Of a stretch of 64,000 nucleotides of DNA, positions 12,845 through 56,802 are shown piece by piece. The translations under genes and the position numbers were made by a program. The stretch is from IMG/VR virus record IMGVR_UViG_3300025902_000021; one strand, 5' to 3'. The notes beneath the pieces were generated by a model. It searched no databases, was not told the DNA's origin, and worked only from the letters and a program-made list of their open reading frames with translations. How positions within the stretch are numbered: the first letter of the stretch is position 1; every line of letters begins with the position of its first letter. The stretch is from an uncultured virus (IMG/VR IMGVR_UViG_3300025902_000021). Taxonomy: Duplodnaviria > Heunggongvirae > Uroviricota > Caudoviricetes.

Positions 12845-12990
12845 TGCACTACCTATTTTTACTGCTGTTCCTAACCGGATGCACGACTCCTGCCCAATGG
12901 TGCATTGGGTCGTGCGTCCAAACCAACCCTGTCAAGGAGAAATACCATGAAGCACCTGTTCCTGCTGTTCCTATCCGTCCTGTCCCTTAA
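12844..12990 (+). CDS. Small lipoprotein (48 aa, not in ORF track)
   Basis: MHYLFLLLFLTGC lipobox then QWCIGSCV; TGATG coupling; homologue 51722. Confidence 0.7.
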   Translation: MHYLFLLLFLTGCTTPAQWCIGSCVQTNPVKEKYHEAPVPAVPIRPVP

Positions 12991-13468
12991 CGCGTTCGCC
13001 TTCGATCTTGGCGGCGACAAGACCTACAACACCGCGAACCAGACCAACCTGCAAGCGGTCGGCGTCGATGTGAGCAATCGCATCAGCAACGACACCCGCG
13101 CCACTGCAACCTCGTTCGCTGCCGGTGGTGTCGGCATCGGCCAAGGTGGTGTCGGTCAGGCTGTATCCGGTGGCTCATCCTCGGGAGTCAATTTTGCAAT
13201 CACCTCTCCAAAGAACACACCTTCCGTTTTCAGCGGCAACGTGTATCCCACCGCGCCTTGCATGGGTTCATCCACAATTGGGGGTGCAGGCGTTGGATTT
13301 GGACTCTCGGTCGGTACGTCTTGGACTGACGACGAGTGCGGCATCCGCGAAACCTCCCGCAGCTTCTCCGGCCTCGGTAAAGCCGACGACGCCCTGAAGG
13401 TGCTCTGCACGTCCAAGTACGCCGCTGCGGCCCCCTCCTGCGCTCAGGCAGCAACGACCAAGGAGTAA
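12947..13468 (+). CDS. Secreted Gly/Ser-rich protein with four-Cys C-terminal domain
   Basis: AAGGAG RBS; signal peptide MKHLFLLFLSVLSLNAFA; APCMGS..WTDDECGIRE..LC..C; homologue 52097. Confidence 0.75.
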   Translation: MKHLFLLFLSVLSLNAFAFDLGGDKTYNTANQTNLQAVGVDVSNRISNDTRATATSFAAGGVGIGQGGVGQAVSGGSSSGVNFAITSPKNTPSVFSGNVYPTAPCMGSSTIGGAGVGFGLSVGTSWTDDECGIRETSRSFSGLGKADDALKVLCTSKYAAAAPSCAQAATTKE

Positions 13469-13471
13469 ATC

Positions 13472-13684
13472 ATGGATCAGAACGACCCACGCTTCATCGA
13501 ATTCTTGCTGCAGGCTCTGCGGCAGGGGACGATGCAACCCGACCCGCCGATGCGGAGACAGGCACCTGCTGGCCCTGTCCCCGATCCTGCGGCTATGCTA
13601 CCCCAAGGCGGGATGTTGGGAGGTGCGGGGGCCGCGCTGCAGGGGCGGCAGGCACAGTTGGATGCGATTCTGAATCAACAGTAG
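13472..13684 (+). CDS. Small Gln/Gly-rich protein
   Basis: AAGGAG RBS; near-identical homologue at 52616. Confidence 0.7.
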   Translation: MDQNDPRFIEFLLQALRQGTMQPDPPMRRQAPAGPVPDPAAMLPQGGMLGGAGAALQGRQAQLDAILNQQ

Positions 13685-13784
13685 CGGGGAGGGGACAGAC
13701 GCGGGCAATCCCGTCGTCCCACCCCTGTCCATAAGCGGCCAGCATCAACACGATGCCAAGAACGGCGACGGCGAAGATGTTCAT
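13593..13784 (-). CDS. Small membrane/secreted protein
   Basis: Hydrophobic N-terminus; ATGA overlap with upstream gene; homologue 52731-52922. Confidence 0.5.
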   Translation of the reverse strand: MNIFAVAVLGIVLMLAAYGQGWDDGIARVCPLPATVDSESHPTVPAAPAARPPHLPTSRLGVA

Positions 13785-14086
13785 TTGACCCTCCATTCCC
13801 AACCTGTGTGATGGTTGTACTCCTCGCTGACCGGACGGCGTTCGAGGATGCCCAGTTCGACGTAGCGCACCAACTGTTTGAAAATCGACATGCGGTGCAT
13901 CCCGAGCCGGTCGGCAATCTCGACTGTCCTGCGCCACTCACTGCCGATGGCGTTGCAATACTTCTCGACTGCCTTGGAGTGGCGCGCCTCATGCATCACA
14001 GTCGGGTCGCGCCACTGACTGTTCTTCTCGCGCGGGTGCACCGGCAACGGCTTCACGTCCATCGATAGCATCTGAGCGAAGTTCAT
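13781..14086 (-). CDS. Winged-helix DNA-binding protein
   Basis: TVEIADRLGMHRMSIFKQLVRYVELGILERR; homologue 54148. Confidence 0.7.
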   Translation of the reverse strand: MNFAQMLSMDVKPLPVHPREKNSQWRDPTVMHEARHSKAVEKYCNAIGSEWRRTVEIADRLGMHRMSIFKQLVRYVELGILERRPVSEEYNHHTGWEWRVK

Positions 14087-14457
14087 GTTGGTACCACCGC
14101 AATTTTGTCATACTGTGGCTGGCGAATCCAGTGGGGAAGAACAGACTGGTTTTCGTCGCGCCATATCAGTTCGCCATCAATCAAGAAGCATTCCATCTTG
14201 ACCTCTTTCATCTTCGGCTGGCGCAGGGACATCTCCCGATCAACGGCAGCAGCAACATCGTCACAGGACGCGCTACGATACTGTGGAAGCATCTCCCGCG
14301 TTTTGGCCGCTGACTCTGGAATGTTTGCCATAGCCACACAACCACAGGCCGCGAGTCGCATCCGTTCTGTTTCGAGTTGCTGGCGCAGGGACAATACCTC
14401 GTTTTGGTCACAGGCGTTCGCGTACATCTGATTCCAGTAGTCCTGTTCAGTTGCCAT
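14083..14457 (-). CDS. Accessory hypothetical protein
   Basis: Coupled ORF; ERMRLAACG motif; two SLRQ hinge motifs. Confidence 0.65.
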   Translation of the reverse strand: MATEQDYWNQMYANACDQNEVLSLRQQLETERMRLAACGCVAMANIPESAAKTREMLPQYRSASCDDVAAAVDREMSLRQPKMKEVKMECFLIDGELIWRDENQSVLPHWIRQPQYDKIAVVPT

Positions 14458-14926
14458 GATTCAATCCCTTCGGTGCGTAGAGTGGAATGGTGTAATGCTC
14501 GGTCTTGTCGAGCGGCCTGATTAGGTACCCGGAATTGGCTTTTTGCAGTAGTTCCTTGACGCTGCTGGTTATTGCATCGTGCCGCGTTGGGCTGTCGTGC
14601 TTCCAAGCAACAGGCTCTCCTAACCAAGCCTTGAGCGCGGAGTCATCGGGCTGGAGGGCGAGGGCCTGTTGATACTCGCTCATGTAGGGCTTGTCTCCGG
14701 CAATCAGGCGCTCAAGTATCGAGTCCTTCAGCTTGCAAGCCGCCAGTGCTGCGGCGAGTTGCTGGCGCAGGGATTCGTACTTTTCATTCAATGCATGGTT
14801 TTCACGTTCTAATGCGTAGCAGTAATCTTCATGTGGCATTTTATTCTCCTTGGTAAGTTGTTTGTAATTTCCTAGTTCGTATTGCGCTTTGGCTAATACT
14901 TGCTGCATTACTGGGCGTAGGCTCAT
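14447..14926 (-). CDS. Accessory mosaic protein (Eae/Ead-like coiled coil plus EPVAW motif)
   Basis: SLRQQL, EPVAW, IPLY motifs; alternative start at 14839 with AAGGAG RBS. Confidence 0.6.
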   Translation of the reverse strand: MSLRPVMQQVLAKAQYELGNYKQLTKENKMPHEDYCYALERENHALNEKYESLRQQLAAALAACKLKDSILERLIAGDKPYMSEYQQALALQPDDSALKAWLGEPVAWKHDSPTRHDAITSSVKELLQKANSGYLIRPLDKTEHYTIPLYAPKGLNHGN

Positions 14927-15219
14927 ATTGGCTCCTTTCTTATTGACCCCCATGCCTCGGCTTCTTCCTTGGCTCCTGGTTTAAGTTCTTGGTACTCGCT
15001 CAGTGCTTCCATGCCTGAGTCCCACCACTTGCTAACAACTGCATTGTCTTTGGTGTCCAGTAGCAGGCACTCCAATTCAAGCGCCAATCGGTGTGCTTGC
15101 GCCCATGCGGTATCGAGTTGCTGGCGCAGTTCGTCCCATCCGTTATAGCGGAGTTCAATCTCAGCCTTAAGTTCTTCGTCTATAACCATGCCGCGAGTCA
15201 GTTTGTCCGGTGCGACCAT
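14923..15219 (-). CDS. Accessory hypothetical protein
   Basis: TGATG coupling; contains LRQQL hinge. Confidence 0.6.
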   Translation of the reverse strand: MVAPDKLTRGMVIDEELKAEIELRYNGWDELRQQLDTAWAQAHRLALELECLLLDTKDNAVVSKWWDSGMEALSEYQELKPGAKEEAEAWGSIRKEPI

Positions 15220-15458
15220 CACAACACCCCCGTCCACCAAGCAACAAGAACCGCGCCGATCACGAACCACACCGCAGCCTCACGCTTGCTCATCTTCGGG
15301 TAGCTGTTCTCCGGCACCGACAGCGGGATGCGCGGGTTCGGGTCACGATCAACCGTGCGGCTGAAGGGGATCACCGTGCCGACCCCCTTATTGAGCGGGG
15401 TCATTGCGTCCAGCCGACGCTGGCGACGTTGCTCATATGCATAGTCTTCGTCTTTCAT
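15219..15458 (-). CDS. Small protein with C-terminal TM helix
   Basis: AAVWFVIGAVLVAWWTGVL; homologue 53880. Confidence 0.65.
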   Translation of the reverse strand: MKDEDYAYEQRRQRRLDAMTPLNKGVGTVIPFSRTVDRDPNPRIPLSVPENSYPKMSKREAAVWFVIGAVLVAWWTGVL

Positions 15459-15459
15459 G

Positions 15460-15660
15460 TCAGGCCTCGAAGTCAAGTTCGTCAGGTTCATCGGAGTAGT
15501 ACGGGTCATCGATCACTTTCTCAATGTTGAATCCGCACTCGGGGTAGAGGTGGGCGTTCTTCCCAATCCACTCCTCGGCCTCCTCCATGGGGAGCCCATC
15601 CTCAATACAGAATGCCTCACCTGTCTCGGTAACTTGCATGATACGATAGGAATCAGCCAC
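15460..15660 (-). CDS. Small acidic hypothetical protein
   Basis: GTG start after AAGGAG; fills gap in operon. Confidence 0.55.
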   Translation of the reverse strand: MADSYRIMQVTETGEAFCIEDGLPMEEAEEWIGKNAHLYPECGFNIEKVIDDPYYSDEPDELDFEA

Positions 15661-15874
15661 GGCGAATCTCCTTGAGACGCTCAACGGCCTCGGTGGGGGT
15701 GGGGGCATACACGATGCTCAAAAGGATTTCAACGGGGAGGGGCATATCACGCCCTGCCTCGTAACGGGAGCCACAGGCTTGGCTAACACCTAGTTTGCGC
15801 CAGAAGCTATGTTGGGTTTTCCCAAGCCCCCATCTGAGGGCAGTAAGTTGTTCACCAGTCATTTCAATCTCCAT
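15653..15874 (-). CDS. XRE-family HTH regulator
   Basis: LGKTQHSFWRKLGVSQACGSRYEAGRDMP. Confidence 0.85.
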   Translation of the reverse strand: MEIEMTGEQLTALRWGLGKTQHSFWRKLGVSQACGSRYEAGRDMPLPVEILLSIVYAPTPTEAVERLKEIRRG

Positions 15875-15894
15875 AGTGGTACATCGAGCCTTAA

Positions 15895-15923
15895 ATATAC
15901 CCTAGTATTAAAGGCAAGTAAAT
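15895..15923 (-). promoter_or_regulatory. Putative sigma70-like promoter for the HTH/accessory operon
   Basis: Minus strand TTTACT-N17-TATATT. Confidence 0.5.
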
Positions 15924-16426
15924 ACATTAGCGAGTCTATCAATAACTACAGCGGGGATTGTATGGCACCCCAACTCATACCTTGCTCCTGTACCTTGCTG
16001 AATCCCCAATTTTCCCCAAAATTTCGTTTGTGAAAGCCCCATATCAAGCCTTAGTTGCTTTACCTTACCCCCAATAGCTAAGTCTGATGTTCTATCCTTT
16101 TTTGGATTAGGATTTTCAATCTCCTTTCTACCTGTAAAGTTTCCTAACAATCCACTACTTATTTTGTAATTTGTAAATAAGAAGTTTTGTCGGGCTTCAA
16201 AAGTATCCAGAGCTAGCGCCCCAAGCAATCCATTACACCTACTACAAGCTGGAACCTTTACAAGAGGAATCCCATGACTGTTAAAGTAAATTGTACCCCT
16301 TGACGCTACGCTGTTTATTGGAGGGATGTGATCCGCTGTAGTAGCTACACCCCCGCAATAAACGCAACAACACCCATCAACGCGTGCGTAGAACTGATTG
16401 TACCGCTTTCTATCAAGTATTGACAT
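15908..16426 (-). CDS. HNH endonuclease fused to XRE HTH
   Basis: CVYCG...TADHIPP...VPACSRCNGL; C-terminal LSQTKFWGKLGIQQGTGARYE; AT-rich relative to flanks. Confidence 0.8.
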   Translation of the reverse strand: MSILDRKRYNQFYARVDGCCCVYCGGVATTADHIPPINSVASRGTIYFNSHGIPLVKVPACSRCNGLLGALALDTFEARQNFLFTNYKISSGLLGNFTGRKEIENPNPKKDRTSDLAIGGKVKQLRLDMGLSQTKFWGKLGIQQGTGARYELGCHTIPAVVIDRLANVFTCL

Positions 16427-16538
16427 AATATGCCCTCATTTACTGCCTATGTGGAGTCGTAGAATCGACGAACGCGAGGCCGGTAGGGTAAAGGGTAAGG
16501 GTACTCGGCGGGATATTACTGAGCACCCTTCCAGACCC

Positions 16539-16814
16539 CTACGCAGCCCTTTCACGGCGGCGCGATATCCCGATTTCGGCCTGGAAACGCTCCTCCTCGG
16601 TCATATCAGCCTGAGCCTTGGCAACCTCGATGTACTTTTCCAGGAAGTGGTGGGCTTTCTCCAAGTCTTGGATACCGTTCTTCTTCTTCCACCGGCTGAC
16701 ATACTTGGTAATCTGGCCTTGGAAGTAGTCCAGGTCGTTGGCTACCACGTAGTCCCAGTGCTGGATGGGGGTCTTATAGTGACCGCCGCCGACTTGGGTG
16801 TTATTTGCACTCAT
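16539..16814 (-). CDS. DUF3310 / T7 gp1.7-like putative nucleotide kinase
   Basis: QVGGGHYK...GQITKYVSRWKKKNGIQDLEKAHHFL. Confidence 0.85.
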   Translation of the reverse strand: MSANNTQVGGGHYKTPIQHWDYVVANDLDYFQGQITKYVSRWKKKNGIQDLEKAHHFLEKYIEVAKAQADMTEEERFQAEIGISRRRERAA

Positions 16815-17349
16815 GACTGATCTCCTTGAGAAGTTGCTTCGTTGCAGGTAGTGGCTCGTTTGTACGCAGGTAGTCGATGCCCCGAGCCAGGATGGGGCGG
16901 AATTGATTGTTGCCCATATTGATCTCCTCCAACGCCTTGAAGCAGAGGTCGAGCATGTCGGCTTGCTTCAGCACCTTGCACTCCCTCGGAGTGAGGGGGG
17001 AGGAGTTGAACCAGTAGCGGTCAAAGCGGCGCTCCATTGCGTCGAGTGCCTCCTTGAGAGGGTCGCTGGCCCACTTGGCCGTGGCCGGAATATCGCCGGT
17101 GAACTGCTCAGCCATATCGTGGGTCAGTGCCGCCATGAGAAGGGCGACGCTCGGCTTGTCCTCGGAAAGGAGCACGCAAAGGATGGCCATATTTGCTGAG
17201 TGATGTCCCACAGTTTCCCCTACCAGGGTGTCCACGGTGTGGAACCGCTTGACCCGATTACCGTTGCGATACCGTTGGATGGTACTTATGGCGGGGTAGG
17301 TGGAGATGACCTCCTCCAGATCTCGCAGCTTGCTAGTGATGGAGCCCAT
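16801..17349 (-). CDS. HD-domain 5'-deoxynucleotidase (YfbR-like)
   Basis: VKRFH...ETVGHHS...ALTHDMAEQFTGDIP...KQADMLD. Confidence 0.88.
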   Translation of the reverse strand: MGSITSKLRDLEEVISTYPAISTIQRYRNGNRVKRFHTVDTLVGETVGHHSANMAILCVLLSEDKPSVALLMAALTHDMAEQFTGDIPATAKWASDPLKEALDAMERRFDRYWFNSSPLTPRECKVLKQADMLDLCFKALEEINMGNNQFRPILARGIDYLRTNEPLPATKQLLKEISHECK

Positions 17350-18311
17350 TATACAGCCCTCCGGTTAATCCACTCCATACACGCCCGTTTCCAGTCGCAG
17401 TCGGGCATTTTGAGCAGATCCTTAATGCCGTTGTCCCGCCCCTCCTTCCGTGAGAACCACGAATCCCACATTGGGATGGCGATCTCATGGAAGAAGGGAT
17501 TTTTGATCTCGGTGTAGTCACCCTCCTCCATGAAGTTTTCGAGGTCATAGAACCAGGTCTTGGGGTCGGCCACGATGGGGTAGGGGCGAACACCGTCAAA
17601 TAGGTAGGGGTCATATGTCTCCGTGGGTACATGAGCCATTAGCTCCCGCCCTTGTCCCATTTCAAGATACAGGTGGGCGTTATTGGAAAACTGACGGTAC
17701 AGCCCGACCCGCAGGTTGAGCATACTGGCTATGACTTCCTGGAGGAAGGACATATGCACAGCGTTGGCGCCGAACATCCCCCAGATAATGTCGTTGGAGC
17801 GGTTACACACCGTCATATTCAACTCCCCATCCACGATGTCGAAGTAGATATGGGTGTTGCACGGCAGGTCGTTCGACTCGGCATCGAGGTCAGCCCTGGG
17901 ATCCCACATGGCTAAGACCGCACGGCGGGTATTGGGCTCATGTTCGAGGAGGTGGATGAGATCCATCAACTGATCCGTCTTGAAGTGGCGGCGCCAGCGG
18001 TGGCCGTATGCTCCATGAAAGTGATGTTCATCGTCGCTGAACTCGCGCATCCGCTTATTGAACGCAGCGATCCACTTCACATCGTTCCGGCCTGCGAGCA
18101 TCCAGAGGCTCTCCATGAGGTGGAAGTACGGGTTGGCATCCCGTTCCGCATTGAACAGCACCCGTTCTTTGGGCTGGACGTAGGTTACCAATACCGGCTC
18201 CATGATGCGGAGGACGTCACCGCCCCGCGAGGTGTAGAGTTGGCCGCTACTCCGCATCTTCCACAACATGTCGTTGAGGCCGGTGTTCACGTTTCTGGTT
18301 GTGAGGTCCAT
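17349..18311 (-). CDS. Thymidylate synthase-fold enzyme, probable dUMP hydroxymethylase
   Basis: GAYG.RW, DQL, TRRAV, DLPCN catalytic Cys, RSND..WG...AN, NAHLY; TAATG coupling gives start 18311. Confidence 0.88.
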   Translation of the reverse strand: MDLTTRNVNTGLNDMLWKMRSSGQLYTSRGGDVLRIMEPVLVTYVQPKERVLFNAERDANPYFHLMESLWMLAGRNDVKWIAAFNKRMREFSDDEHHFHGAYGHRWRRHFKTDQLMDLIHLLEHEPNTRRAVLAMWDPRADLDAESNDLPCNTHIYFDIVDGELNMTVCNRSNDIIWGMFGANAVHMSFLQEVIASMLNLRVGLYRQFSNNAHLYLEMGQGRELMAHVPTETYDPYLFDGVRPYPIVADPKTWFYDLENFMEEGDYTEIKNPFFHEIAIPMWDSWFSRKEGRDNGIKDLLKMPDCDWKRACMEWINRRAV

Positions 18312-19084
18312 TAGTATTTGCTCCTTGCGTATCCACGCTTCCATTTAGAAAATTCGCACAGGCAGTTCTGCATATCCTGGGCGTCCACATCGATCACATC
18401 TGACACTTCCAGCCGAACCTTATTGAGCTCAGCTTGGAACTTCGGCTGGCCCCATTTAGTTCCCTGTGGGAGACCACGGAGGAGGTTCAACCCCCGCACC
18501 GATCCAGGCCCTGGGGCGCAGAAGGTGTCCCCGTCGGGGGCGTCACCAAGAACCCTTGTATGCTTGAGATCGGCCACGATCTGGGCAGCGATAAAGCTAC
18601 CAACGCGGGGGAGGTCTTGGAGGTCATGCCAAGCATTGACGCAACTATCCATATCCCACGAATCGTTTGCTGCATCGAGCGTCCTGGCCACTGACTCATA
18701 CTTGGGGGATCCATCGGATTCGGCGGTGATCATGTAGGCACCTGTCCAGACCTTCCCAGGCCGGTCAGTCAAGTGCTTCATGGTAGCTATGAACGTCGGG
18801 CGCTCTTTGCTCCAGTTGTCGATAAAGCCGATCTTGCCGAGGGTATCCGGCCAGTTGATCAACCTGCACATAATCATGTTGAGGATCATGGACGGGTGTC
18901 CATCGTAGGGGTCACGGAAGTGCTCCTTGATGTAGCGCGTCACCTTGTCATCCTCGCGGTGGACGTTACAGAAGCGGTAGGTGGCGAGCATAGGGTCCTT
19001 TGTCCATGGTCTCGGCAGGCCAGCTTCCTTCTTGACGCGGATCGCCTCACGCTCGGTGATCCAGAATTTTAGATCAGCTAACAT
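18311..19084 (-). CDS. aGPT-Pplase clade-1-like helical protein (thymine hypermodification family)
   Basis: ERE.IR.KKEAG.PRPWT.DP.L..YRFCNV.REDD.VT; GSFIAAQIVADL; PGPGS.RGL; QNCLCEFSK. Confidence 0.82.
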   Translation of the reverse strand: MLADLKFWITEREAIRVKKEAGLPRPWTKDPMLATYRFCNVHREDDKVTRYIKEHFRDPYDGHPSMILNMIMCRLINWPDTLGKIGFIDNWSKERPTFIATMKHLTDRPGKVWTGAYMITAESDGSPKYESVARTLDAANDSWDMDSCVNAWHDLQDLPRVGSFIAAQIVADLKHTRVLGDAPDGDTFCAPGPGSVRGLNLLRGLPQGTKWGQPKFQAELNKVRLEVSDVIDVDAQDMQNCLCEFSKWKRGYARSKY

Positions 19085-19643
19085 CGTGACCCCCCTCGAA
19101 CAGATCTAGCACCTGGCCGGTAGGATCACCATTCCACTCCAAGGTGACTACGTTCCGGCCCGACCAAATGAGCTTCTTCTTGAGTGCCTCTATTGGTACG
19201 ATCCGCTTGCGCGTGTTACGCTCGTTGAGGGGGGTGAGGACACCGCGCTCCTTGCGGCGCTGGATAACCCGCTCAATACAAACCTCGATGGGGGTGTTGA
19301 GGAAGGCGAAGATATGGGAGTTGCCCCACTTCTCCGTAATGGCACCCAAGCGCCCGTAGTAGGTTGATAGCAGAAGCCCCTCATAGAGTATATGTCCTTC
19401 CTCGGCGTAGTGTTCGATAAGCTCGATCTGCTTGTCAATAGATTTCACCCCATCCATCCCTCCGCACTTGTTCTCATACGGCCCCAGGATGTACAGGGGA
19501 CGCTTGAGGAACGGGTGCTCCACCTTGTATGCTTCAGGGCGCTTCACCGGCCCGATGGGGAGGATCTGACTTGCCTCATCGAAGATGTTACGCACGATAG
19601 TGGTCTTACCGGAGCCACTGGTTCCGTGGATCTTTACAATCAT
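19074..19643 (-). CDS. P-loop kinase, candidate 5-hmdU DNA kinase
   Basis: Walker A GTSGSGKTT; GPY...CGGMD; YEG; LNTPIEVCIERV..RR; adjacent to modification genes. Confidence 0.75.
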   Translation of the reverse strand: MIVKIHGTSGSGKTTIVRNIFDEASQILPIGPVKRPEAYKVEHPFLKRPLYILGPYENKCGGMDGVKSIDKQIELIEHYAEEGHILYEGLLLSTYYGRLGAITEKWGNSHIFAFLNTPIEVCIERVIQRRKERGVLTPLNERNTRKRIVPIEALKKKLIWSGRNVVTLEWNGDPTGQVLDLFEGGHDVS

Positions 19644-19674
19644 CTTGGTACTCCTACGTTGTTAATAGAGCCTT

Positions 19675-19704
19675 AACTATACCGGAAAACTAGAATCAAG
19701 GGTA
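19675..19704 (-). promoter_or_regulatory. Putative promoter of the modification cassette (motif shared with 25706-25735)
   Basis: Minus strand TTACCCTTGATTCTAGTTTTCCGGTATAGT. Confidence 0.6.
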
Positions 19705-21050
19705 ATATTTTTCTTGTAATCCTCAATAGCCTTGAACAGATCCTCTTGCTCCCGCCCCTTCTCAGCTAGCACCTTCAAGACCTTGGCGTCCATAGTCTTT
19801 TCGCCGATGAGGTAGTGGATTACTACCCGAGCGTTCTTTTGACCTTGGCGATATACCCGAGCGTTGGCTTGGTCGTGAAGGTATAGATCCCACGGCGGGC
19901 ACATCCAGAGGATGTTAGAGCAAGCGCCCTGGAGATTAAGGCCGACCCCAACTGTCTTAGGATGGCCAATCAATACTGGGATTGTACCCTCGTTAAATCT
20001 CTTGATAAGCTCGTCGGGGGGCTTAGTCCGGGTAAGGTTGGGGACGCCCCCTAGCGCCGTTTGTATACGCTCCTCATCGTGGTTAAACTCGTAGAAGATT
20101 AGAAGCGGGGTGCCATTGAGATCTTCCACGATCCCCTTCAGGGCGTTGATCTTTTCATAGTGTATATGCTCTACGCCATCCTCGGTGTACAGGCCTCCAT
20201 TCGATATTTGACGACATCTACCCCCAGCCACGGCCGCGTTTGGGGAGGCTACCTTTTCACCACTCCCAAGGATAGCCAGAAACTCCTTCTCCATTGCCTT
20301 GTATATCTTGAAGGCTGGAGGTGGAAGGATAACGCTTATGGGGTTGATGATAAGGTCGGGCATGTCGATATTGTCCCGCGCCGACATGCGCATTACCAAT
20401 GGGGCGATCCGGCGGAACAGGATGTCCTTGTAGTGGGGGATGACCTTGTAGCTGTAGCCCGACCGATCTGGGACGCAGAACTCGTTGCGGAAGTGGGTTA
20501 TATAATGACCGAGAGACTTTCCTTGGTCAAGGATGTAGATCTGACTCCAGATGTCTTCCAGGCCGTTTGGAGAGGGGGTGCCGGTGAGGATCCACCTGTA
20601 CTTGAATTCGCCTAGCCCTTTCTTTATTGCCTTGAACCGTTGGGAGGCGGGGTTTTTCCACTCCGCCGACTCATCAATTAGCAGGAGGTCATAATCACCC
20701 CCGAAGAACGTACCACGCTTCAACCATGGAAGTGCCGACTCGGGGTTGATAGCGTGGATGAGCGCCCCCTTGACTGATGTTGGCGGTAGTCTGCTCTCAT
20801 GCAGGTTGTGGTAGGTCAATCCTTCAAAGTCACCCCACTTCTCGATCTCATTGGGCCATACAGTGTAGAGTGCGCGGATGGGGGCGATGAGGAGCACTTT
20901 CTTGATGAACCCCGCCTCGGACAACTGTTTTATCGCGAACAGGCTGATGGAGGTCTTCCCCAACCCCATGTCGAGGAACAGACCTGCATAGCGGTTCTTC
21001 AGCAGGAACTCAATTGCTTCCAGTTGGTACTTGTGCGGCGTATAGCGCAT
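19677..21050 (-). CDS. SNF2-family helicase
   Basis: LFLDMGLGKT, IDES, LTGTPSPN, GVGLNLQ, QANARVYRQGQ. Confidence 0.93.
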   Translation of the reverse strand: MRYTPHKYQLEAIEFLLKNRYAGLFLDMGLGKTSISLFAIKQLSEAGFIKKVLLIAPIRALYTVWPNEIEKWGDFEGLTYHNLHESRLPPTSVKGALIHAINPESALPWLKRGTFFGGDYDLLLIDESAEWKNPASQRFKAIKKGLGEFKYRWILTGTPSPNGLEDIWSQIYILDQGKSLGHYITHFRNEFCVPDRSGYSYKVIPHYKDILFRRIAPLVMRMSARDNIDMPDLIINPISVILPPPAFKIYKAMEKEFLAILGSGEKVASPNAAVAGGRCRQISNGGLYTEDGVEHIHYEKINALKGIVEDLNGTPLLIFYEFNHDEERIQTALGGVPNLTRTKPPDELIKRFNEGTIPVLIGHPKTVGVGLNLQGACSNILWMCPPWDLYLHDQANARVYRQGQKNARVVIHYLIGEKTMDAKVLKVLAEKGREQEDLFKAIEDYKKNITLDSSFPV

Positions 21051-21345
21051 CACGTTCCTCCTTGAATTTATCCAGGATATAGCAAGCATCGATCAAATTG
21101 TCCACGACGAAGATGCGAATATGCTGCTTCCTCAATTTCTCGTGGATATGTAGCTGCATCGCCCTGGGCTTTTCCTTCGCAGCTTTGTACTCTACAAAGA
21201 TGGTCTCGCCACGGTAGCAGTACAGCCGATCTGGCCAGCCGATCTGCCCCTTGACGTTGAGCTTCAAGGACAACATGCCCAGCTTGAGTGCGTGAGCAGT
21301 TGCCTTCGTCTCGATGCGACTTTCTAGGTCAGAAGTCCCACTCAC
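21010..21345 (-). CDS. VRR-NUC nuclease
   Basis: LESRIE...GWPDRL...FVEYK....PR..Q; start approximate. Confidence 0.85.
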   Translation of the reverse strand: MSGTSDLESRIETKATAHALKLGMLSLKLNVKGQIGWPDRLYCYRGETIFVEYKAAKEKPRAMQLHIHEKLRKQHIRIFVVDNLIDACYILDKFKEERDALYAAQVPTGSN

Positions 21346-21994
21346 ACTCGCCACCTTTGGACTTCTTGTAGGAGCACCACTTACATGCCTCATTGGACGG
21401 CGTGGCGGGGAACTCTTTTGCTTCATACAGCTTGTCCCACCGACCCTTCCATACTTGTTGGAGGAATGGCTCCAAGGCGCGGGGGTAGGCGGTATGGGCA
21501 CCCTCACCCTCCAAGTAGATGGGGGCCACTACAGCCTCCACCACCTCGGGGTAGCGCATAAGCCCCAAGACCGCATACGCCTCCAGCTGATCATAGTGGG
21601 AATTGCCAGGCCGACCCGTCTTGAGGTCGCGGATATGCAAGATGCCATCTTCGATCCAGTGGATATCCACGATAGCCTTGAAGGTCGTGTCGGGTGTCTC
21701 CTCGTCTTGGAACTCCCAGGTGTCATCGCGGATGAGCCAGATTTCCTCAGCCTTGGCGCCCTTCTCTTTAACCTCTTCCAGGAGTGGCCGGATGCGCATG
21801 AAGTCCACCGACAGCGCCGTGGCCGGAATCTCTCCCTTCAAGAAACGCTCACAGGCCAAGTGGAGGCGTGTACCCTTTGCCGCGGCAGGGCCGGCTGCGT
21901 AGTTGATCTTGTCGATGTAGGAGAGCTTGTACTTCAGAGGGCAGTCCTCAAACTTCGTGAGGGCTGAGTAGCTCGTGCGTGGGATATCAATCAT
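21329..21994 (-). CDS. PD-(D/E)xK Cas4/RecB-like exonuclease
   Basis: SYSAL..FEDCP; GTRLH; IVD...IRDLKTG; QL..Y; CKWCSY.....C. Confidence 0.88.
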   Translation of the reverse strand: MIDIPRTSYSALTKFEDCPLKYKLSYIDKINYAAGPAAAKGTRLHLACERFLKGEIPATALSVDFMRIRPLLEEVKEKGAKAEEIWLIRDDTWEFQDEETPDTTFKAIVDIHWIEDGILHIRDLKTGRPGNSHYDQLEAYAVLGLMRYPEVVEAVVAPIYLEGEGAHTAYPRALEPFLQQVWKGRWDKLYEAKEFPATPSNEACKWCSYKKSKGGECEWDF

Positions 21995-23811
21995 AGTTCC
22001 TCCATTTCGTACCAGTTGGGGCCATATTCGACCGTTGCGCGCATAGGGATATCAAACTCCCCCTTCTCCATTGCAGCTTTCAGAATGGCGACCTCGGACT
22101 TGAGATGCTTCTTCGAAACGCTGATACAGATTTCGTCATGTACCGTAGCCAGGAACCGTCCATGCTTCTTGGTATTATGGTACTCGATGATCGCTTGCTT
22201 CGTCTGATCCGCAGAGCTTCCCTGGATCAAGTAGTTGAGAAGCACGTAGTCCTTGTTCCAGATACGCCCATTCCGCCCCATTTCGGGTGGGGGAGCATAT
22301 AGCAGGCGACCGCCCCATGAGCGCACTGGCTCCTTCTGGGAGGCGCGGAACTCAACTTGATCCATGAACTCCTGGACGCCCGTAAGGGTGCGCATATATG
22401 ACGACCGAATCTTCGCAGCCTCGGAGGTGGAGACCCCCATACGCTCGGCCATCGTCTTGACCCCCGCCCCGTACAGGATGGAGAAGGCCACGACCTTGGT
22501 ATGCTTACGACTTAGGGCCAGCCCCGTATTGTCGGAGATGATGTCAGCTGCTACCTGGTGAATATCCGCAGCCGGATCGTTGTCGTAGATGTACTTGATC
22601 GCCCCCTCAGCGAAGTGGCCAAGCATGCGGATTTCCTGGGAGTGGAAGTCAGCTGACACGAACACCTCGCCTGGGTCGGGGAGTACATATACCCGCATAT
22701 GGGGCAGCTCCGGCAACTCCTCGGGTGCTTTGATCTTGAACTCGGTAGGGATGTTCTGGAAGTTGGGATCAGACGATGACAAGCGACCTGTCAGCGCCCC
22801 ATTCTGGTCACCTTTGACTTGATTCCACCGCGGATGGAGAATGCCGCCGGTTAGCAGGCCTTTCTCATACCAAGGTTTCATGAACGTGCCGAGCAGGGTC
22901 GACAGCGCCCCACGGTAGGCAAGAAGGTGAAACAGCTCGGGGTCGGTGATGACTTTCTCAAGTACATCACGTGCGGTCGATAGCTTGCCTGTTGGCGTTT
23001 TAGGCCAGTCGTCATCATCGACTGTCATGTCCACAGCCTTCGCCGCCATGGCCAGTTGGACGCCAGAGCTGATCTTGAACTCGGGATTATCCTCCTGCTC
23101 CAAGATTACCAGGATGCGGTGCTCGACCTCAGCGAATGCTTCCTCGTAGATGGCGATGTCTTTCTCCAGCCTGGGCATGTCGACGTGGATCCCCTCCAAC
23201 TCACTTTGGGTCAGGATCGGGGCCAGCTGCCGCTCACGGTCATAGGCTTCAACCATCCCGCTGGCCTCGATTTTGGGATAGAGTAGGTCATAGAGTAGTT
23301 TGGTGCGGAGGGTATCACCGCCCGCATAGGTGCCGACTAGGTCACCTGGGGCATCCGCGATATGGGCGCCCCACTTCTTCGTGTTGGAGGGAACTATTCC
23401 ATTGTGTACGAGCCAGTCTCTCACCGCGGTCTGCTCGTCAGGAGGGAGGTCGAGCAACCGATCAGCGCTGGGTTTGAGGCCCAGGGGCGACAGGGGGTCA
23501 TTGAGGAACAGGAGGTACATCGTATCGTGGATGCGATCCCACGACCCCCAGCTAGTCACGACCTCGGGGAACCATTTCATCAGAACCGCCATGTCGAAGC
23601 GGGCGTTCTGGCAGCACAAGGCATGGCCAGAGTCCCACATCCATTTGAGGAAGTAGCTGGCAGCCTCCTTGGTACAATTGTTCTCCGTAGGGTGACCCCA
23701 GGCTAAGTAGCAGGCTGGGAAATCATCGAGTTGAATGGAAACACCCACCGGCTCGGGTGGGTAGTTTGGGTACGGCTCAATGGCCGCAGTTTCAAAGTCA
23801 AAGGTTATCAT
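21991..23811 (-). CDS. DNA polymerase family A with 3'-5' exonuclease
   Basis: DFET exo I; TGRLSSSDPNFQNIP; ADFHSQEIR; RKHTKVVAFSILYG; NYLIQGSSAD; VHDEI. Confidence 0.95.
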   Translation of the reverse strand: MITFDFETAAIEPYPNYPPEPVGVSIQLDDFPACYLAWGHPTENNCTKEAASYFLKWMWDSGHALCCQNARFDMAVLMKWFPEVVTSWGSWDRIHDTMYLLFLNDPLSPLGLKPSADRLLDLPPDEQTAVRDWLVHNGIVPSNTKKWGAHIADAPGDLVGTYAGGDTLRTKLLYDLLYPKIEASGMVEAYDRERQLAPILTQSELEGIHVDMPRLEKDIAIYEEAFAEVEHRILVILEQEDNPEFKISSGVQLAMAAKAVDMTVDDDDWPKTPTGKLSTARDVLEKVITDPELFHLLAYRGALSTLLGTFMKPWYEKGLLTGGILHPRWNQVKGDQNGALTGRLSSSDPNFQNIPTEFKIKAPEELPELPHMRVYVLPDPGEVFVSADFHSQEIRMLGHFAEGAIKYIYDNDPAADIHQVAADIISDNTGLALSRKHTKVVAFSILYGAGVKTMAERMGVSTSEAAKIRSSYMRTLTGVQEFMDQVEFRASQKEPVRSWGGRLLYAPPPEMGRNGRIWNKDYVLLNYLIQGSSADQTKQAIIEYHNTKKHGRFLATVHDEICISVSKKHLKSEVAILKAAMEKGEFDIPMRATVEYGPNWYEMEEL

Positions 23812-23841
23812 CTCTGCCTATGCGTAGTCGTAGGATCGTTT

Positions 23842-23870
23842 GAAAGGGGGAGGGCGAACCCTACCCCCTA
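23842..23870 (-). terminator. Hairpin/terminator between SSB-like gene and polymerase
   Basis: Minus strand GGGGTAGGG-TTCG-CCCTCCCC followed by CTTT. Confidence 0.6.
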
Positions 23871-23879
23871 CCCGAGTTG

Positions 23880-24623
23880 CTAGAACTTACCCTTGCCCTT
23901 CGCAGGGGGTGCTACGGGCGTTTCCTCGGGGGTATTAACCCCGTTATCGAACAGAAGCTCGGTCTGCATACGCTCAACAAGGGGCATGACCGCCTCCAGA
24001 TGCTGGTCGTCCAGCAGGCCGGAGAACTTGAAGTTCACCTTGAACTGAGACACCTTGTCCGGCACTGTGGACATCTCGGTGATGACGCCGAACGGGGGAC
24101 GCTTCACAACGTTGCCGATCTGCTGGACGTATTTGTTCCAGTTCTTCCCAGAAGTGACGGGGATGCGGGCGAACAGGAAGTCAGCCTGGGCCAGCTCCTC
24201 GGGGTCGTTCGGCATGATCACCATACCGAGGCGCATCGTGTTCTTGCACGCCTTGCCCTTGCCGCCCTTCGGGTCAGACTCCCACTCGTTGTTCGGGCAG
24301 GTGGCGCAGCCGCCCTCGTGGAATAGGTGGGTCACCTTCCCAGGGATGGGGGCCATGGAGTCCTCGTTGTAGCCCACAGCCCAGCAGTCGGCCGACACGA
24401 CCTTTTTGGGGTCATAGGCGTTGGGGAACCACTGGTTCTCGTGGGCGAAGCCCAGGACGATCACATTGACCTTGTTACCGGCCGCAGGCTGATCGTTGAA
24501 CGAGAGGACGCCAGACTTGAACGAGATCAGCTTGGCCTCGGTCTTGGTTGCTTCGACTGCCTTCTTAGCAGCGGCTTCCATCAGGGCCTTGAAGTCGATG
24601 GGGGTTGCGATTTCAGTTGTCAT
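23880..24623 (-). CDS. Putative ssDNA-binding/annealing protein
   Basis: Position upstream of polymerase; C..CP.N.W.S...GKGKACKN motif. Confidence 0.6.
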   Translation of the reverse strand: MTTEIATPIDFKALMEAAAKKAVEATKTEAKLISFKSGVLSFNDQPAAGNKVNVIVLGFAHENQWFPNAYDPKKVVSADCWAVGYNEDSMAPIPGKVTHLFHEGGCATCPNNEWESDPKGGKGKACKNTMRLGMVIMPNDPEELAQADFLFARIPVTSGKNWNKYVQQIGNVVKRPPFGVITEMSTVPDKVSQFKVNFKFSGLLDDQHLEAVMPLVERMQTELLFDNGVNTPEETPVAPPAKGKGKF

Positions 24624-24647
24624 GCTTAGTGCTCCGTCAGTTAGTGA

Positions 24648-25019
24648 TTAGGATTTGCCCAGGGTTGCCTTGGTTTCCAGGACGCGGGCCACGCCAGGAA
24701 CCTCATTGCCCTCTTGCCAGCGCTCACGCACCCCAGTCAGGGACACGCGGCGTTGGAGGAGGTCAAATGATCCAGTTTCTTTAATGTATGCATACAGGTC
24801 GGGGTAGCTCGTGACCTCGGCAGATTCGATCATGCCGAGCTTCAGCTTTCCATGATCGCCATGGACTTCTTGCAGCTCCAGCTCCTCCATTTCGGAGGCC
24901 AGAGCAGCCACGAGGCCATCTTCCTTGGCCTTCATCATGTCCACCTTCTTCTGGATGGACAAGCGTTCTTGGCGGAGGTCGAACACTTCGTCGATACGTT
25001 CTTGAAGGGTCAGGTCCAT
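24648..25019 (-). CDS. Conserved phage replication-region protein (coiled coil)
   Basis: DLYAYIKETGSFDLLQRRVS...VPGV motif; GGGGA RBS. Confidence 0.65.
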   Translation of the reverse strand: MDLTLQERIDEVFDLRQERLSIQKKVDMMKAKEDGLVAALASEMEELELQEVHGDHGKLKLGMIESAEVTSYPDLYAYIKETGSFDLLQRRVSLTGVRERWQEGNEVPGVARVLETKATLGKS

Positions 25020-25020
25020 G

Positions 25021-25662: not shown

Positions 25663-25705
25663 CTAAGTCACTCCGTGGTATCTGGGACTTACCCCAGGGA
25701 ACCCC

Positions 25706-25735
25706 TATTATACCGGAAATCTACGACCAAGGGTA
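25706..25735 (-). promoter_or_regulatory. Putative leftward promoter
   Basis: Minus strand TTACCCTTGGTCGTAGATTTCCGGTATAAT; 25/30 identical to 19675-19704. Confidence 0.65.
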
Positions 25736-26329: not shown

Positions 26330-26348
26330 CTGACTGTCCAGAAATATA

Positions 26349-54468: not shown

Positions 54469-54764
54469 CAGTGCACCCTTGCCTTATCGACTGTTTCGGC
54501 GGGAGCCTCTTCCTTCTCCGTCCGCTTCGTCATCGCTTGCAGGGCGATCATCGCGGCCATTTCGGCCATTTCGGCGACCAACATAACCGGATCGTCGGGG
54601 AGGGAATCACCCTTCAGGTCGCCATGCTTCATGCGGATCATGTTCGCCGCCAGCGAGATCATCGTGCTGATCGCGATTTCCTGCGGCATCGCGATCAGCA
54701 TTTCGGCTGCGTCTTTACTGATTCCAATCTTTCCTACTTCTCTGGTAATCATTTCGGCCTCCAA
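54468..54764 (-). CDS. Hypothetical protein
   Basis: Coupled ORF in operon. Confidence 0.55.
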   Translation of the reverse strand: MEAEMITREVGKIGISKDAAEMLIAMPQEIAISTMISLAANMIRMKHGDLKGDSLPDDPVMLVAEMAEMAAMIALQAMTKRTEKEEAPAETVDKARVH

Positions 54765-54931
54765 CCATATTTGACCTCAAGCAGCATCAGTACCGGCTTC
54801 GGCATGGCGCGGCCATTCTCGTAGCGGCTGCCACCCGACTGCGTGGTGCCGAGGGACGACCAGAACTCGGTCTGGTTCAGCTTGAGCGACTTGCGAAACT
54901 CCAGGACTGTTTTCGGCTTGCTCATTTTCAT
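54749..54931 (-). CDS. XRE-family HTH regulator
   Basis: LKLNQTEFWSSLGTTQSGGSRYENGRAMPKPV. Confidence 0.85.
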   Translation of the reverse strand: MKMSKPKTVLEFRKSLKLNQTEFWSSLGTTQSGGSRYENGRAMPKPVLMLLEVKYGWRPK

Positions 54932-55134
54932 ACTCCTTTTGACCAGCGTTTAAGAATGCTTCGGTTGTTCTTCCCTGCGTGCTGGCTGTCGCTGGCCGAC
55001 ACCGACACGACGAGAATCTTCTTGCCAGCCGGTGTGTCGAGGAACAGCTTGTAGTGCTTCACCTTCTCGACACGTTCCAGCTTGATGTTCGGGAAGGACG
55101 CAACCAGCTTGAGCATTTCACGTTCGATTTTCAC
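54928..55134 (-). CDS. Small basic protein (HicA-like fold possible)
   Basis: KHYKL....G..ILVVS.SASD motif. Confidence 0.5.
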   Translation of the reverse strand: MKIEREMLKLVASFPNIKLERVEKVKHYKLFLDTPAGKKILVVSVSASDSQHAGKNNRSILKRWSKGV

Positions 55135-55331
55135 AGCAAGGCTCCCCCTTCAATCAACAGTTGGCGTTCGCGCTTCGCCCGCAGCTTGGTGTAACGCTGG
55201 TGCAGGCGACCAATGACGTTCTTGCGCTTGTAGGTGCTGACCTCGAAGTTGATGCTTTCACGAAGGCTTTCTTCGTCCATTTCACCGACCTGCGCAATGA
55301 GTTGCTTCCAGCTTTCAAATACGACAATCAT
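55131..55331 (-). CDS. Small helical hypothetical protein
   Basis: AGGAG RBS; IGRLHQRY.KLR..RER. Confidence 0.6.
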   Translation of the reverse strand: MIVVFESWKQLIAQVGEMDEESLRESINFEVSTYKRKNVIGRLHQRYTKLRAKRERQLLIEGGALL

Positions 55332-55364
55332 GGTTTCTCCTATTTGTATGGGGTACGTGTCTGT

Positions 55365-55393
55365 ACTATACCCCACGAATATTCAGAACGCAA
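55365..55393 (-). promoter_or_regulatory. Putative sigma70 promoter after helicase
   Basis: Minus strand TTGCGT-N17-TATAGT. Confidence 0.6.
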
Positions 55394-55398
55394 CACTT

Positions 55399-56802
55399 TT
55401 AGTGACGATGCTCACGATATTTTTTGATTGCGTTCCGCAACCCCTTCTGGGTGTCGTCTTTCGACGCCAGCGTGAGGCTCTGCACCTGGTCCAGCGTGTC
55501 GGTACAGAGGATGCGATGGCAGATGACCGGCGCGCCCTGCCCCTGCCGACGGATACGGGCGTTGAACTGGTCGTAGAGGTCGAGCGACCAGTTCAGGCCG
55601 AACCAGACAAGGATGTGTCCGGCCTTCTGCAGCCCGTCGACGCCGTGACCCATCGATGCCGGATGACCGATCATCAGGGCGCAGTCGCCGGATGCCCACC
55701 GACGCATGGCCTCGTTGAGCGACCGTTCCGACTTGCAATCGGTCAGGTTGATCGGGCGCAGCTTGTGGAATTTCGCCATGATCCGTTCGGCATCGCTGCG
55801 ATAAGCGTAGCTACACAGCACCTGCTGCCCGTTTGCCTCTTCGATGATCTCTTCCAGCGCATCCAGCTTCAGGTCGTGGATCGGCTCCCACATGGGCATC
55901 CCTGCCAGCGGATACATCGCCCCGTTGGAGAACTGGAGACACTTGTTCATCAGGGATGCCTGGTTGAACAGTTCGACTTCCGCGCCGCTGTCGAGGCGGA
56001 TGAAGAACTCTTTCTCCATCCGGTCGTACATCTCGCGCAGGTCGGGCGACAGTTCAACAGTCACGTCGTTGATGAGGATGTCGGGCAGCGGGTTGTAGTC
56101 CTCGGCACTCATTTCCAGGGTCATGTCGCCGATGAGGTTCTTCATGGCCTCCTCGGTGTCCTTGTACGGCACCTTCTTGAAGCCACCTCCCGACTTGTAC
56201 CAGCGACCCTCGAACTGTGTTTTCGACGTGCCCAGGCGCGCTCCGTCGTCGAGGACGAGGTACTGGCCGTGCAAGTCCTTGTAACCGTTGCTGGCGGGGG
56301 TCCCCGTCAATCCTGTACGCCACCGGAAGAAGGGCAGCACCTTGCGCAACGCCTTCACCCGATGCGTCGAACTGTTCTTGCATTTGGTGATCTCGTCGAA
56401 CACGATCCCGTCGAACGGCAGCGGCAGCCCTTTCGATAGGTAGTAGGTGTGCAGTGTCTCGGCCAACCACTCCAGATTCTCGTAGTTGATCAGGAACACA
56501 TCTGCCTGTTTCGTCAGGCTGCGAGTGCGCTGATCACGATCGCCGACAAGCATCGAGAACTTGAGGTACTGTGTGTGCATCCACTTCACAGCTTCCTGTC
56601 GCCATACCAACCGGCAGACCCGGATCGGCGCGACGACCAGCACGGCTTTCAGGTAGCCACATTTGATGAGGTATTCGGCACTGGTCAGCGTGACAGCGGT
56701 CTTCCCCAGGCCCATGTCCATCCACAACGCGGAGGCAGGGCGACTGCACTGAAACTCGACGGCTTTGTGTTGGTAGGGGAACAGTTGGTTAAGCGATAGC
56801 AT
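55399..56802 (-). CDS. SNF2-family helicase
   Basis: MDMGLGKT; FDEIT; LTGTPA; HPASMGHG; QFNARIRRQGQ. Confidence 0.93.
   Translation of the reverse strand: MLSLNQLFPYQHKAVEFQCSRPASALWMDMGLGKTAVTLTSAEYLIKCGYLKAVLVVAPIRVCRLVWRQEAVKWMHTQYLKFSMLVGDRDQRTRSLTKQADVFLINYENLEWLAETLHTYYLSKGLPLPFDGIVFDEITKCKNSSTHRVKALRKVLPFFRWRTGLTGTPASNGYKDLHGQYLVLDDGARLGTSKTQFEGRWYKSGGGFKKVPYKDTEEAMKNLIGDMTLEMSAEDYNPLPDILINDVTVELSPDLREMYDRMEKEFFIRLDSGAEVELFNQASLMNKCLQFSNGAMYPLAGMPMWEPIHDLKLDALEEIIEEANGQQVLCSYAYRSDAERIMAKFHKLRPINLTDCKSERSLNEAMRRWASGDCALMIGHPASMGHGVDGLQKAGHILVWFGLNWSLDLYDQFNARIRRQGQGAPVICHRILCTDTLDQVQSLTLASKDDTQKGLRNAIKKYREHRH

Follow-up and report, generated by a model that had tools for sequence, protein, structure and literature searches.

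The thymidine-hypermodification cluster of the Pseudomonas phages M6/YuA runs from gp51, the amino acid:DNA transferase ADDT (PF18724), through gp52 (a pyridoxal-phosphate, PLP, enzyme), gp53 (a radical S-adenosylmethionine, SAM, enzyme), gp54 (kinase), gp55 (PF18723), gp56 (Nmad5), gp58 (synthase fold), gp59 (HD) and gp61 (DUF3310) to the polymerase. The present work concerns a five-gene cassette of this type in 64,000 nucleotides of DNA from an uncultured tailed virus (IMG/VR record IMGVR_UViG_3300025902_000021, Caudoviricetes), the whole stretch being called the window throughout. What is new in it is a transferase-less, kinase-retaining version of the known cluster. Sequence comparisons identify the conserved core of an M6/YuA-type cluster in a lineage lacking ADDT and point tentatively, with a little less than an even chance, to 5-phosphomethyl-uracil (5-PmdU) as the terminal base.

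Purified M6 gp54 adds a single phosphate to 5-hydroxymethyluracil (hmU) in DNA, giving 5-PmdU and not the pyrophosphate of older reports, and this phosphorylation protects DNA from NcoI; gp51 transfers glycine after the gp54 step, and omission of gp55 left the hypermodified product in lysates unchanged (PMC8989533). An earlier note on the window, made from its letters alone, had the kinase pyrophosphorylating hmU, and on this point the published single phosphate replaces it. In Bacillus phage SP10 the kinase and PF18723 form one polypeptide, gp186 (a 653-amino-acid frame), which is tabulated beside a radical-SAM gene (PMC5889632) and whose kinase domain is active by itself (PMC8989533). The conversion of hmU to thymidine in SP10, PhiW-14, M6 and ViI was stated to be unexplained in 2018 (PMC5889632). 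Our literature search found no later assignment of this step, no experimentally assigned function for clade-1 aGPT-Pplase (PF18723) proteins, and, among ADDT-less, kinase-bearing phages, a DNA chemistry for SP10 only. The base of SP10 DNA is alpha-glutamylthymine. In one class of SP10 mod mutants, phosphorylated hmU is said to build up while T and the hypermodified base are both missing, though this is not counted as evidence here.

Next to the DNA polymerase region, the window cassette repeats the M6 order of kinase, clade-1 (PF18723), synthase-fold, HD and DUF3310 genes, but it is without counterparts of gp51-53 and gp56 and so equals the right-hand part of the M6 cluster; it also sits in a 38-kb podophage-type genome as opposed to that of a 59-kb siphophage, and its kinase is too divergent for the Pfam cut-off. 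This homology and synteny with M6 support the earlier proposal of a cassette of the thymidine-hypermodification type that has neither clade-2 transferase nor tailoring enzymes. SP10 likewise has a kinase and PF18723, with no PF18724 anywhere in its genome, but that genome is 144 kb and the two domains are joined. The cultured Microbacterium phage BouleyBill (locus L020) and its relatives, with genomes of about 39 kb, share adjoining P-loop kinase and PF18723 genes, a synthase-fold gene and the lack of PF18724, although their kinase belongs to Pfam Ploopntkinase3 and neither gene order nor host is the same. Rhodoferax phage P26218 (36 kb, cultured; locus L098) and 27 uncultured relatives are similar in genome type, slot, helicase, kinase, synthase-fold and HD genes, but they carry ADDT (P26218 gp14, 4.8e-50), and P26218 has no PF18723. 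P26218, with ADDT only, and BouleyBill, with PF18723 only, are thus two cultured small-phage versions of the kinase and synthase cassette. Pelagiphages of the HTVC023P type, which are podophages, are reported to have adjoining 'TS + aG/PT-PPlase1' partner genes near Pol A and, in the part of that source available, no clade-2 enzyme; the same part mentions no kinase, and host and lineage differ (PMC9599517). The TET/JBP-based systems Tonitrus and CaiB have ADDT and the kinase, with PF18723 in 0/2. A transferase-less layout is therefore not unique to the window, being found also in SP10, BouleyBill and the genome record G003.

Organization of the five-gene cassette

The cassette comprises five translationally coupled minus-strand genes at window 16539-19643, given here in their order of reading and followed by the two flanking genes.

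19074..19643, minus strand: P-loop kinase, 189 amino acids, a divergent homologue of the 5-hydroxymethyldeoxyuridine (5-hmdU) DNA kinase (5-HMUDK) M6 gp54
18311..19084, minus strand: PF18723 protein (HMUDK_hel, formerly aGPT-Pplase clade 1), 257 amino acids
17349..18344, minus strand: thymidylate-synthase-fold enzyme, probable deoxyuridine monophosphate (dUMP) hydroxymethylase, 331 amino acids
16801..17349, minus strand: HD-domain YfbR-like 5'-deoxynucleotidase homologue, 182 amino acids (PF12917 3.1e-16)
16539..16814, minus strand: DUF3310 protein, 91 amino acids (PF11753 2e-07, 31.4 bits against a cut-off of 24)
19677..21089, minus strand: SNF2-family helicase, directly upstream of the cassette (PF00176 2.9e-16; phrog_62 2.1e-126)
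15908..16426, minus strand: HTH_92 (RsaL-like, XRE-type) protein, downstream boundary of the cassette (PF22495 1.5e-10)

Coordinates, overlaps and profile matches agree with the earlier description of five overlapping or coupled genes and with the families named for them. Overlaps are 11 nt for kinase/PF18723, 34 nt for PF18723/synthase, 1 nt for synthase/HD and 14 nt for HD/DUF3310, and the second of these shrinks from 34 to 1 nt, as in locus L007, with the synthase starting at Met12 (18311), which is probably its real start. The cassette is collinear with M6 gp54-55-58-59-61, and an identical five-gene order follows the helicase in L001, L003, L004, L005, L007 and L009 (39-100% identity). 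Between the helicase stop and the kinase there is a 33-nt spacer with an AGGAG ribosome site and nothing else, and sigma-70-like sites across 13500-26500 occur at chance level (8 against 7.4 +/- 2.8 expected), with none in this gap. The idea that one promoter-like motif drives the five genes is consequently dropped, and the cassette is probably transcribed leftward together with the SNF2 helicase. Within the ADDT-less clade all five genes have ratios of nonsynonymous to synonymous substitution (dN/dS) of 0.09-0.34, i.e. purifying selection, with the kinase at 0.34 against L003 and 0.11 against L005 and the four non-kinase genes at 0.09-0.21, the synonymous component being saturated for the synthase gene against L005.

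The kinase aligns over its full length with M6 gp54 at 25% identity (BLASTP, E 4e-14) and matches phrog_800 (1.4e-16), with weak matches to AAA_33 and dNK and chance-level matches only in the PDB. Against Pfam PF18748 it scores 12.4 bits for a cut-off of 27, compared with 65 bits for M6 gp54; homologues close to it exceed this cut-off (P0346 70.1, P0247 52.7 and P0317 40 bits), a full HMMER scan returned 1512 cluster representatives at E<=0.001, and the kinase alignment (A3) shows no variation at the Walker A residues G7, G10, G12 and K13. The strongest case that it may be a DNA kinase comes from position and phyletic pattern, the gene appearing orthologous by position to the kinase that stands beside ADDT in 27/27 loci. 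Among add-ons in the wider gene pool are DUF5131 fused to an hmU-kinase-type domain and a kinase interrupted by an HNH-bearing intein (proteins P0301, P0305, P0296), as well as a CotH-type kinase gene beside the cassette (L046:8629-9819). In record G011, a complete relative (locus L091), the kinase match has one in-frame TGA.

The synthase-fold enzyme is 47% identical to M6 gp58 over its whole length (E 2e-100), shares a C-terminal extension with it, and matches PF00303 (1.7e-22) and phrog_5131 (5.7e-111), while falling below every NCBIfam equivalog cut-off for canonical ThyA (best 87.9 against 174.55 bits). It has the nucleophile Cys162, the phosphate motif R182-S183-x-D185 and Asn194. An Asn/Asp switch separates uracil- from cytosine-specific members of the thymidylate-synthase family, and the Asp of the best PDB sequence match, the CMP hydroxymethylase MilA, aligns with Asn194, in line with the earlier placement of an Asn at the specificity position; dUMP as substrate is thereby supported. 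Hydroxymethylase as opposed to methylase activity is probable, judging from orthology with the M6 group and from context. The HD protein reaches 60 bits against PF12917 (cut-off 25.9) but 36.8 against 122 for the NCBIfam equivalog, is 33% identical to M6 gp59 (E 1e-14), and may act to remove thymidine monophosphate or triphosphate (dTMP or dTTP). The DUF3310 protein has 91 amino acids only, compared with T7 gp1.7 (an annotated nucleotide kinase of 196 amino acids), in which DUF3310 occupies residues 122-184 (E 4.5e-23); M6 gp61 matches DUF3310 at 1.9e-4, just under the cut-off.

Search for a transferase and census of related loci

The phage that carries the cassette, unit A, spans window 456-38688 and is 100% identical to record G001 (38,233 bp, linear, CheckV 98% complete), which bears out its description as a complete unit. 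A six-frame search for PF18724 (ADDT, clade 2) at E<=1 found none in the whole 38,233-bp record; positive controls were recovered at 2.3e-48 (M6) and 4.8e-50 (P26218). Because the ADDTs of podophage relatives are divergent from the Pfam model (28-44 bits, with the complete genome G008 missed by a Pfam-based genome search), a lineage-specific profile was built from 34 ADDT-like open reading frames (ORFs) of related podophages, all with an E/D-T/S-x-x-C motif. Run at full sensitivity on every six-frame window ORF, this profile gave a best E of 0.4, and the ADDT profile of the census (A2) also had no match. Pfam at E<=0.001 over 49 window ORFs (33 in unit A) detected no ADDT, PLP, radical-SAM, glycosyltransferase or dCMP deaminase family, and extension to 7 more ORFs at E<=0.01 and 15 (partly the same) at E<=0.1 gave the same negative. 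No Pfam family of a PLP decarboxylase, radical-SAM isomerase, FAD oxidase or acetyltransferase was seen at E<=0.001 among the scanned ORFs, of which those under about 70 amino acids or in alternative frames were scanned in part, and for the rest of the unit A ORFs Pfam, PHROGs and NCBIfam yielded no PLP, radical-SAM, glycosyltransferase or deaminase family. These results agree with the earlier note, in which no such enzyme had been recognized by eye.

Several proteins were considered as hidden transferases. The protein p247 (23880-24623) is Pam3_Gp34-like by language-model features only (0.96) and precedes the polymerase in all relatives, ADDT-bearing ones included, and p178 has weak matches only (Sipho_Gp157 0.053 within the candidate set) and also occurs in ADDT-bearing relatives; neither is taken for an ADDT substitute, since both are present where ADDT is. 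Two unannotated ORFs of 257 and 287 amino acids lie between the large terminase and portal genes (window 32242-33863), the second with weak SprT/metallopeptidase-like matches (NCBIfam 1.3e-4; Pfam DUF6782 0.048). These two ORFs do not look like transferases either, having weak matches only (SprT 1.3e-4). As far as profiles can tell, no hidden transferase was found among the ORFs of unit A.

For comparison, 82 related loci were scanned with profiles for the kinase (A3), PF18723 (A1) and ADDT (A2) and with single-sequence searches for other genes, PF18723 being in every locus by search design. Loci were classifiable if they extended far enough upstream to cover both the Pol A and the SNF2 gene, which was the case in 44/82, the other 38 being too short and dropped and near-duplicate contigs being counted. 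Kinase and ADDT occurred together in 27/44 loci, with ADDT directly upstream of the SNF2 helicase; the kinase was present without ADDT in 8/44 (L001-L005 and L007, which form the unit A clade, L009, and L029); neither was present in 9/44; and ADDT without the kinase in 0/44, from which it appears that this kinase family is the one on which ADDT depends. The ADDT-bearing loci lie among L023-L091 (e.g. L024:7251-8030 and L035:6911-7729) and have an intact E-T-x-x-C motif. A synthase-fold match was obtained in 73/82 loci, and most of the other nine end soon past the PF18723 gene (L083 does not). The constant core is thus the PF18723 gene with the synthase-fold gene, and assembly follows a hierarchy in which the kinase is placed on top of this core and ADDT only on top of the kinase.

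In the PF18723 tree, which is unrooted so that the direction of change is inferred, the unit A clade (support 100/100) lies inside a group (100/98) in which ADDT-bearing relatives are common; L029 and L009 branch elsewhere as separate ADDT-less lineages. PF18724 is absent from the L029 record G003 (41,290 bases, 99% complete). Nesting among ADDT-bearing relatives makes loss of ADDT in the unit A lineage the simplest reading, and by the same simplest reading the ADDT-less state may have arisen at least three times. In the third layout, with neither kinase nor ADDT, 5/5 genomes (four of them >=98% complete) lack the kinase profile, which is present at E<=1e-64 in 5/5 controls. PF18723 is kept in these complete kinase-less genomes, and its reaction therefore need not use 5-PmdU. 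In the kinase-less loci L090 (3839-4636) and L094 (8206-9006) a TET-associated glycosyltransferase occupies the kinase slot, with a radical-SAM/SPASM enzyme beside it in the latter (L094:8904-9986).

PF18723 and the fate of phosphorylated hmU

The PF18723 protein matches its family at 1.5e-34 (120.1 bits against a gathering score of 25) and phrog_2396, and is about 32% identical to M6 gp55. All signature motifs of the family are present (R-F-C-N-x-x-R-E-D-D, G-P-G-S and Q-N-C-L-C-E-x-x-K), and about 30 residues are invariant in an alignment of 44 homologues, including C39, D172, K174, D184, G192-P-G-S195, Q239, N240, C243 and E244. The signature residues are identical across all three locus layouts, with C243-E244 in 80/82 loci and the remaining 2 truncated. 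A four-cysteine metal site was considered and discarded because C189 and C241 vary, only C39 and C243 being invariant. There was no PDB sequence match at E<=1. The best structural neighbor is the glycine:5-PmdU DNA transferase PUGT (PaMx11 gp46; PDB 8Z2M, 8Z2N), at 6% identity in the structural alignment, in which the C-terminal L-C motif of PF18723 aligns with the catalytic Cys247. In the SH-Ab 15599 enzyme, as in PUGT, Glu and Thr hold a metal contacting O4 and the Cys attacks C6 (PMC11472151; PMC13458397). Unlike PUGT, the PF18723 protein has Q and N in place of E243 and T244, and the Pfam family differs. The clade-1 protein itself has no PF18724 match at E<=0.01, the metal-ligand E and T being invariant Q and N with the Cys alone kept, and profile-profile comparison with ADDT (hhalign) is not significant (E 0.23, probability <1%), so that the comparison is one of local motif correspondence only, backed by the fold match: G-x-G-S-F...A-D-L lines up with G-F-G-P-W...A-D-M, and Q-D-x-Q-N-C-L-C-E with Q-E-V-E-T-V-L-C-K. 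Since the Cys is kept but amides replace the ADDT metal ligands, PF18723 looks like an enzyme of a chemistry related, but not identical, to that of ADDT.

Fusion to replication domains was seen in 31 of 41 long PF18723 homologues (proteins P0391-P0431; 31-48% identity), the partners among the 41 being AAA_25 helicase (24), Pol A (8), Prim-Pol or PriCT (7) and DUF5906 (2). Domain orders, checked in nine, include PF18723 - Prim-Pol - PriCT - AAA_25, Pol A - PF18723, and Pol A - PF18723 - AAA_25, and in P0431 (1872 amino acids, on a 121-kb contig) PF18723 is the C-terminal domain of an MmeI-like restriction-modification protein. C243-E244 is kept in 40/41 of these proteins. Some fusions could be gene-calling read-through, but the frequency of joining to primase-helicase or polymerase suggests that PF18723 may act on DNA at or near the replication fork.

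In the mechanism proposed here, the synthase-fold enzyme would convert dUMP to 5-hmdUMP, the HD enzyme would deplete thymidine nucleotides, the DUF3310 protein together with host kinases would raise 5-hmdUTP, and phage Pol A would build hmU-DNA. The kinase would then phosphorylate part of the hmU in the polymer to 5-PmdU, which would be kept as a terminal, restriction-blocking base beside hmU or T, and PF18723 would have a kinase-independent, replication-linked job on hmU-DNA. Terminal 5-PmdU is the favored end state, though with somewhat less than an even chance of being right, because there is no transferase in the genome, the kinase is selected without ADDT, and PF18723 is equally conserved without the kinase. 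Resolution of 5-PmdU by PF18723 to thymine is unlikely, its resolution to a new adduct is rather improbable, and so is a kinase working on nucleotides, which would leave plain hmU-DNA; canonical DNA is the least likely end state. The end product cannot be matched to any described base. The earlier note expected an undescribed base or pathway whether the clade-1 protein was itself a transferase or the DNA kept a phosphorylated hmU; both alternatives are live, but in a third outcome, that in which the clade-1 protein resolves 5-PmdU to thymine, there would be no new base. The chances seem evenly balanced that one of two things is true, either that virion DNA contains finished 5-PmdU with PF18723 as a separate fork enzyme, or that PF18723 is the enzyme making thymine or a new adduct from phosphorylated hmU.

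Several points weigh against terminal 5-PmdU. A final phage DNA base with an added negative charge is unreported in the literature examined and should make packaging harder; the kinase, at 12.4 bits against PF18748 and 25% identity to M6 gp54, could have a nucleotide substrate; and the name hydroxymethylase was given to M6 gp58 and its homologues from context, so that this activity too is a presumptive one. Other points fit at least as well an alternative in which PF18723 consumes 5-PmdU, its Cys attacking C6, the phosphate leaving, and the methylene being reduced to thymine or trapped by some plentiful nucleophile of the cell, yielding a base not yet described, a reading we consider doubtful, though a serious one. 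An 11-nt overlap joins the kinase gene to that of PF18723 here, and in SP10 gp186 the two are fused, as would suit hand-over of substrate from kinase to PF18723; SP10 also makes alpha-glutamylthymine without a PF18724 match, which suggests that phosphorylated hmU can be consumed by a clade-1 domain. PF18723 has kept the counterpart of PUGT Cys247, Q239-N240-x-L-C243-E244 lining up with ADDT E-T-x-L-C, where the Cys is catalytic and E/T bind metal (PMC11472151; PMC13458397). M6 gp55, being dispensable for the hypermodified product in lysates, may serve the other, thymine-forming branch (PMC8989533), and the enzyme for hmU-to-thymidine conversion is the one still unassigned in SP10, PhiW-14, M6 and ViI (PMC5889632). 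Tonitrus and CaiB, which start from T, have ADDT and kinase but PF18723 in 0/2, and P26218 with ADDT alone and unit A with PF18723 alone have the same kinase-synthase-HD set, as if either paralogue could finish the pathway. Against this consumption of 5-PmdU stand the identical signature residues of PF18723 in complete kinase-less genomes, hence where there is no 5-PmdU, and the hydroxymethylase-based P26218, which lacks PF18723. Moreover, Q and N invariably occupy the positions of the ADDT metal ligands E and T, the ADDT profile comparison is not significant at E 0.23, a reductant-binding domain is not evident in PF18723, and full conversion to T has no obvious benefit.

It is also conceivable, though somewhat unlikely, that PF18723 is not a post-kinase step but a fork-linked, base-flipping reader or surveillance enzyme for hmU-, U- or T-DNA, which may tether or direct an hmU-decorating kinase or glycosyltransferase and which would be compatible with terminal 5-PmdU. 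The replication-domain fusions in 31/41 long homologues and the single MmeI-like fusion are consistent with such a role, as are the retention of C243-E244 in 40/41 of them, the TET-associated glycosyltransferase in the kinase slot of L090 and L094, and the activity of the SP10 kinase domain alone (PMC8989533); but an invariant Cys-Glu at a proven catalytic-cysteine position is more than a reader needs, and the caveat of gene-calling read-through applies to some of the fusions. Ordinary nucleotide metabolism, with the synthase making dTMP, the P-loop protein a deoxynucleoside monophosphate (dNMP) kinase and canonical virion DNA, would account for the PF00303 match, the weak dNK, AAA_33 and uridine-kinase-type matches of the kinase and its score under the PF18748 cut-off. 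It is nevertheless very improbable, given a synthase far under all ThyA equivalog cut-offs and 47% identical, C-terminal extension included, to the M6-type enzyme, the constant company of ADDT and this kinase family (27/27 loci), and the lack of any known role for PF18723 in nucleotide pools.

Genome setting and implications

The window consists of three phage records end to end: 1-455, the tail of another, related phage record; unit A at 456-38688; and unit B at 38689-64000, the initial 25 kb of a third, related phage. The three records share one cutting point, just past the capsid gene, and their ends are mutually 83-98% identical. In unit A the plus strand encodes tail and lysis functions at 456-13468; an early/replication block follows on the minus strand (13781-25662), and beyond it the plus strand again carries the genes for primase-helicase, terminase, portal and capsid. 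The portal of unit A has relatives in Stenotrophomonas phage BUCT555, Mx8 and 38-kb Brucella podophages (31-39% identity), and a near-identity search of window 13000-30300 against cultured phages found no match. In the replication block, a VRR-NUC-like ORF (165 amino acids, window 21010-21507) shares about 180 nt with the exonuclease gene upstream of it; the true start of this ORF is probably internal, because the unit B counterpart has 91 amino acids.

The slot in unit B that matches the position of the cassette is as follows.

54749..56802, minus strand: helicase, two small ORFs and HTH_92 gene, without the cassette

Between the unit B helicase (55399-56802) and HTH_92 gene (54749-54931) there are only two ORFs, of 81 and 68 amino acids, and the earlier note was therefore right that the cassette is absent from this phage. 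The claim that it is the same slot holds loosely, as the helicases of the two units are 36% identical and the polymerases unrelated, which implies that units A and B differ in whole replication modules and not by a clean insertion or deletion. The proposal that the cassette is a portable anti-restriction module holds in part: it moves with one replication-module type (the 606-amino-acid Pol A, p247 and SNF2), but unit B has a different module and offers no clean deletion. Unit B has, beside its recombination genes, a PAPS-reductase-family gene (PF01507, 2.9e-22) adjoining a phrog_5931 gene (window 61589-63152), a pair that may provide a different DNA- or nucleotide-modifying function in this cassette-less phage.

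The unit A lineage is in effect a natural knock-out of the transferase branch, in which the kinase and PF18723 are still selected in a 38-kb genome with few other candidate genes, and the cassette isolates two questions in a small gene set, namely the role of PF18723 and the fate of phosphorylated hmU. The hierarchy seen in the census frames how thymidine-hypermodification pathways are assembled. If 5-PmdU is indeed terminal, the natural DNA bases would be joined by one of a new kind, a phosphorylated nucleobase produced by a kinase that has outlived the loss of its transferase, and two enzymes would suffice as a simple block to restriction.

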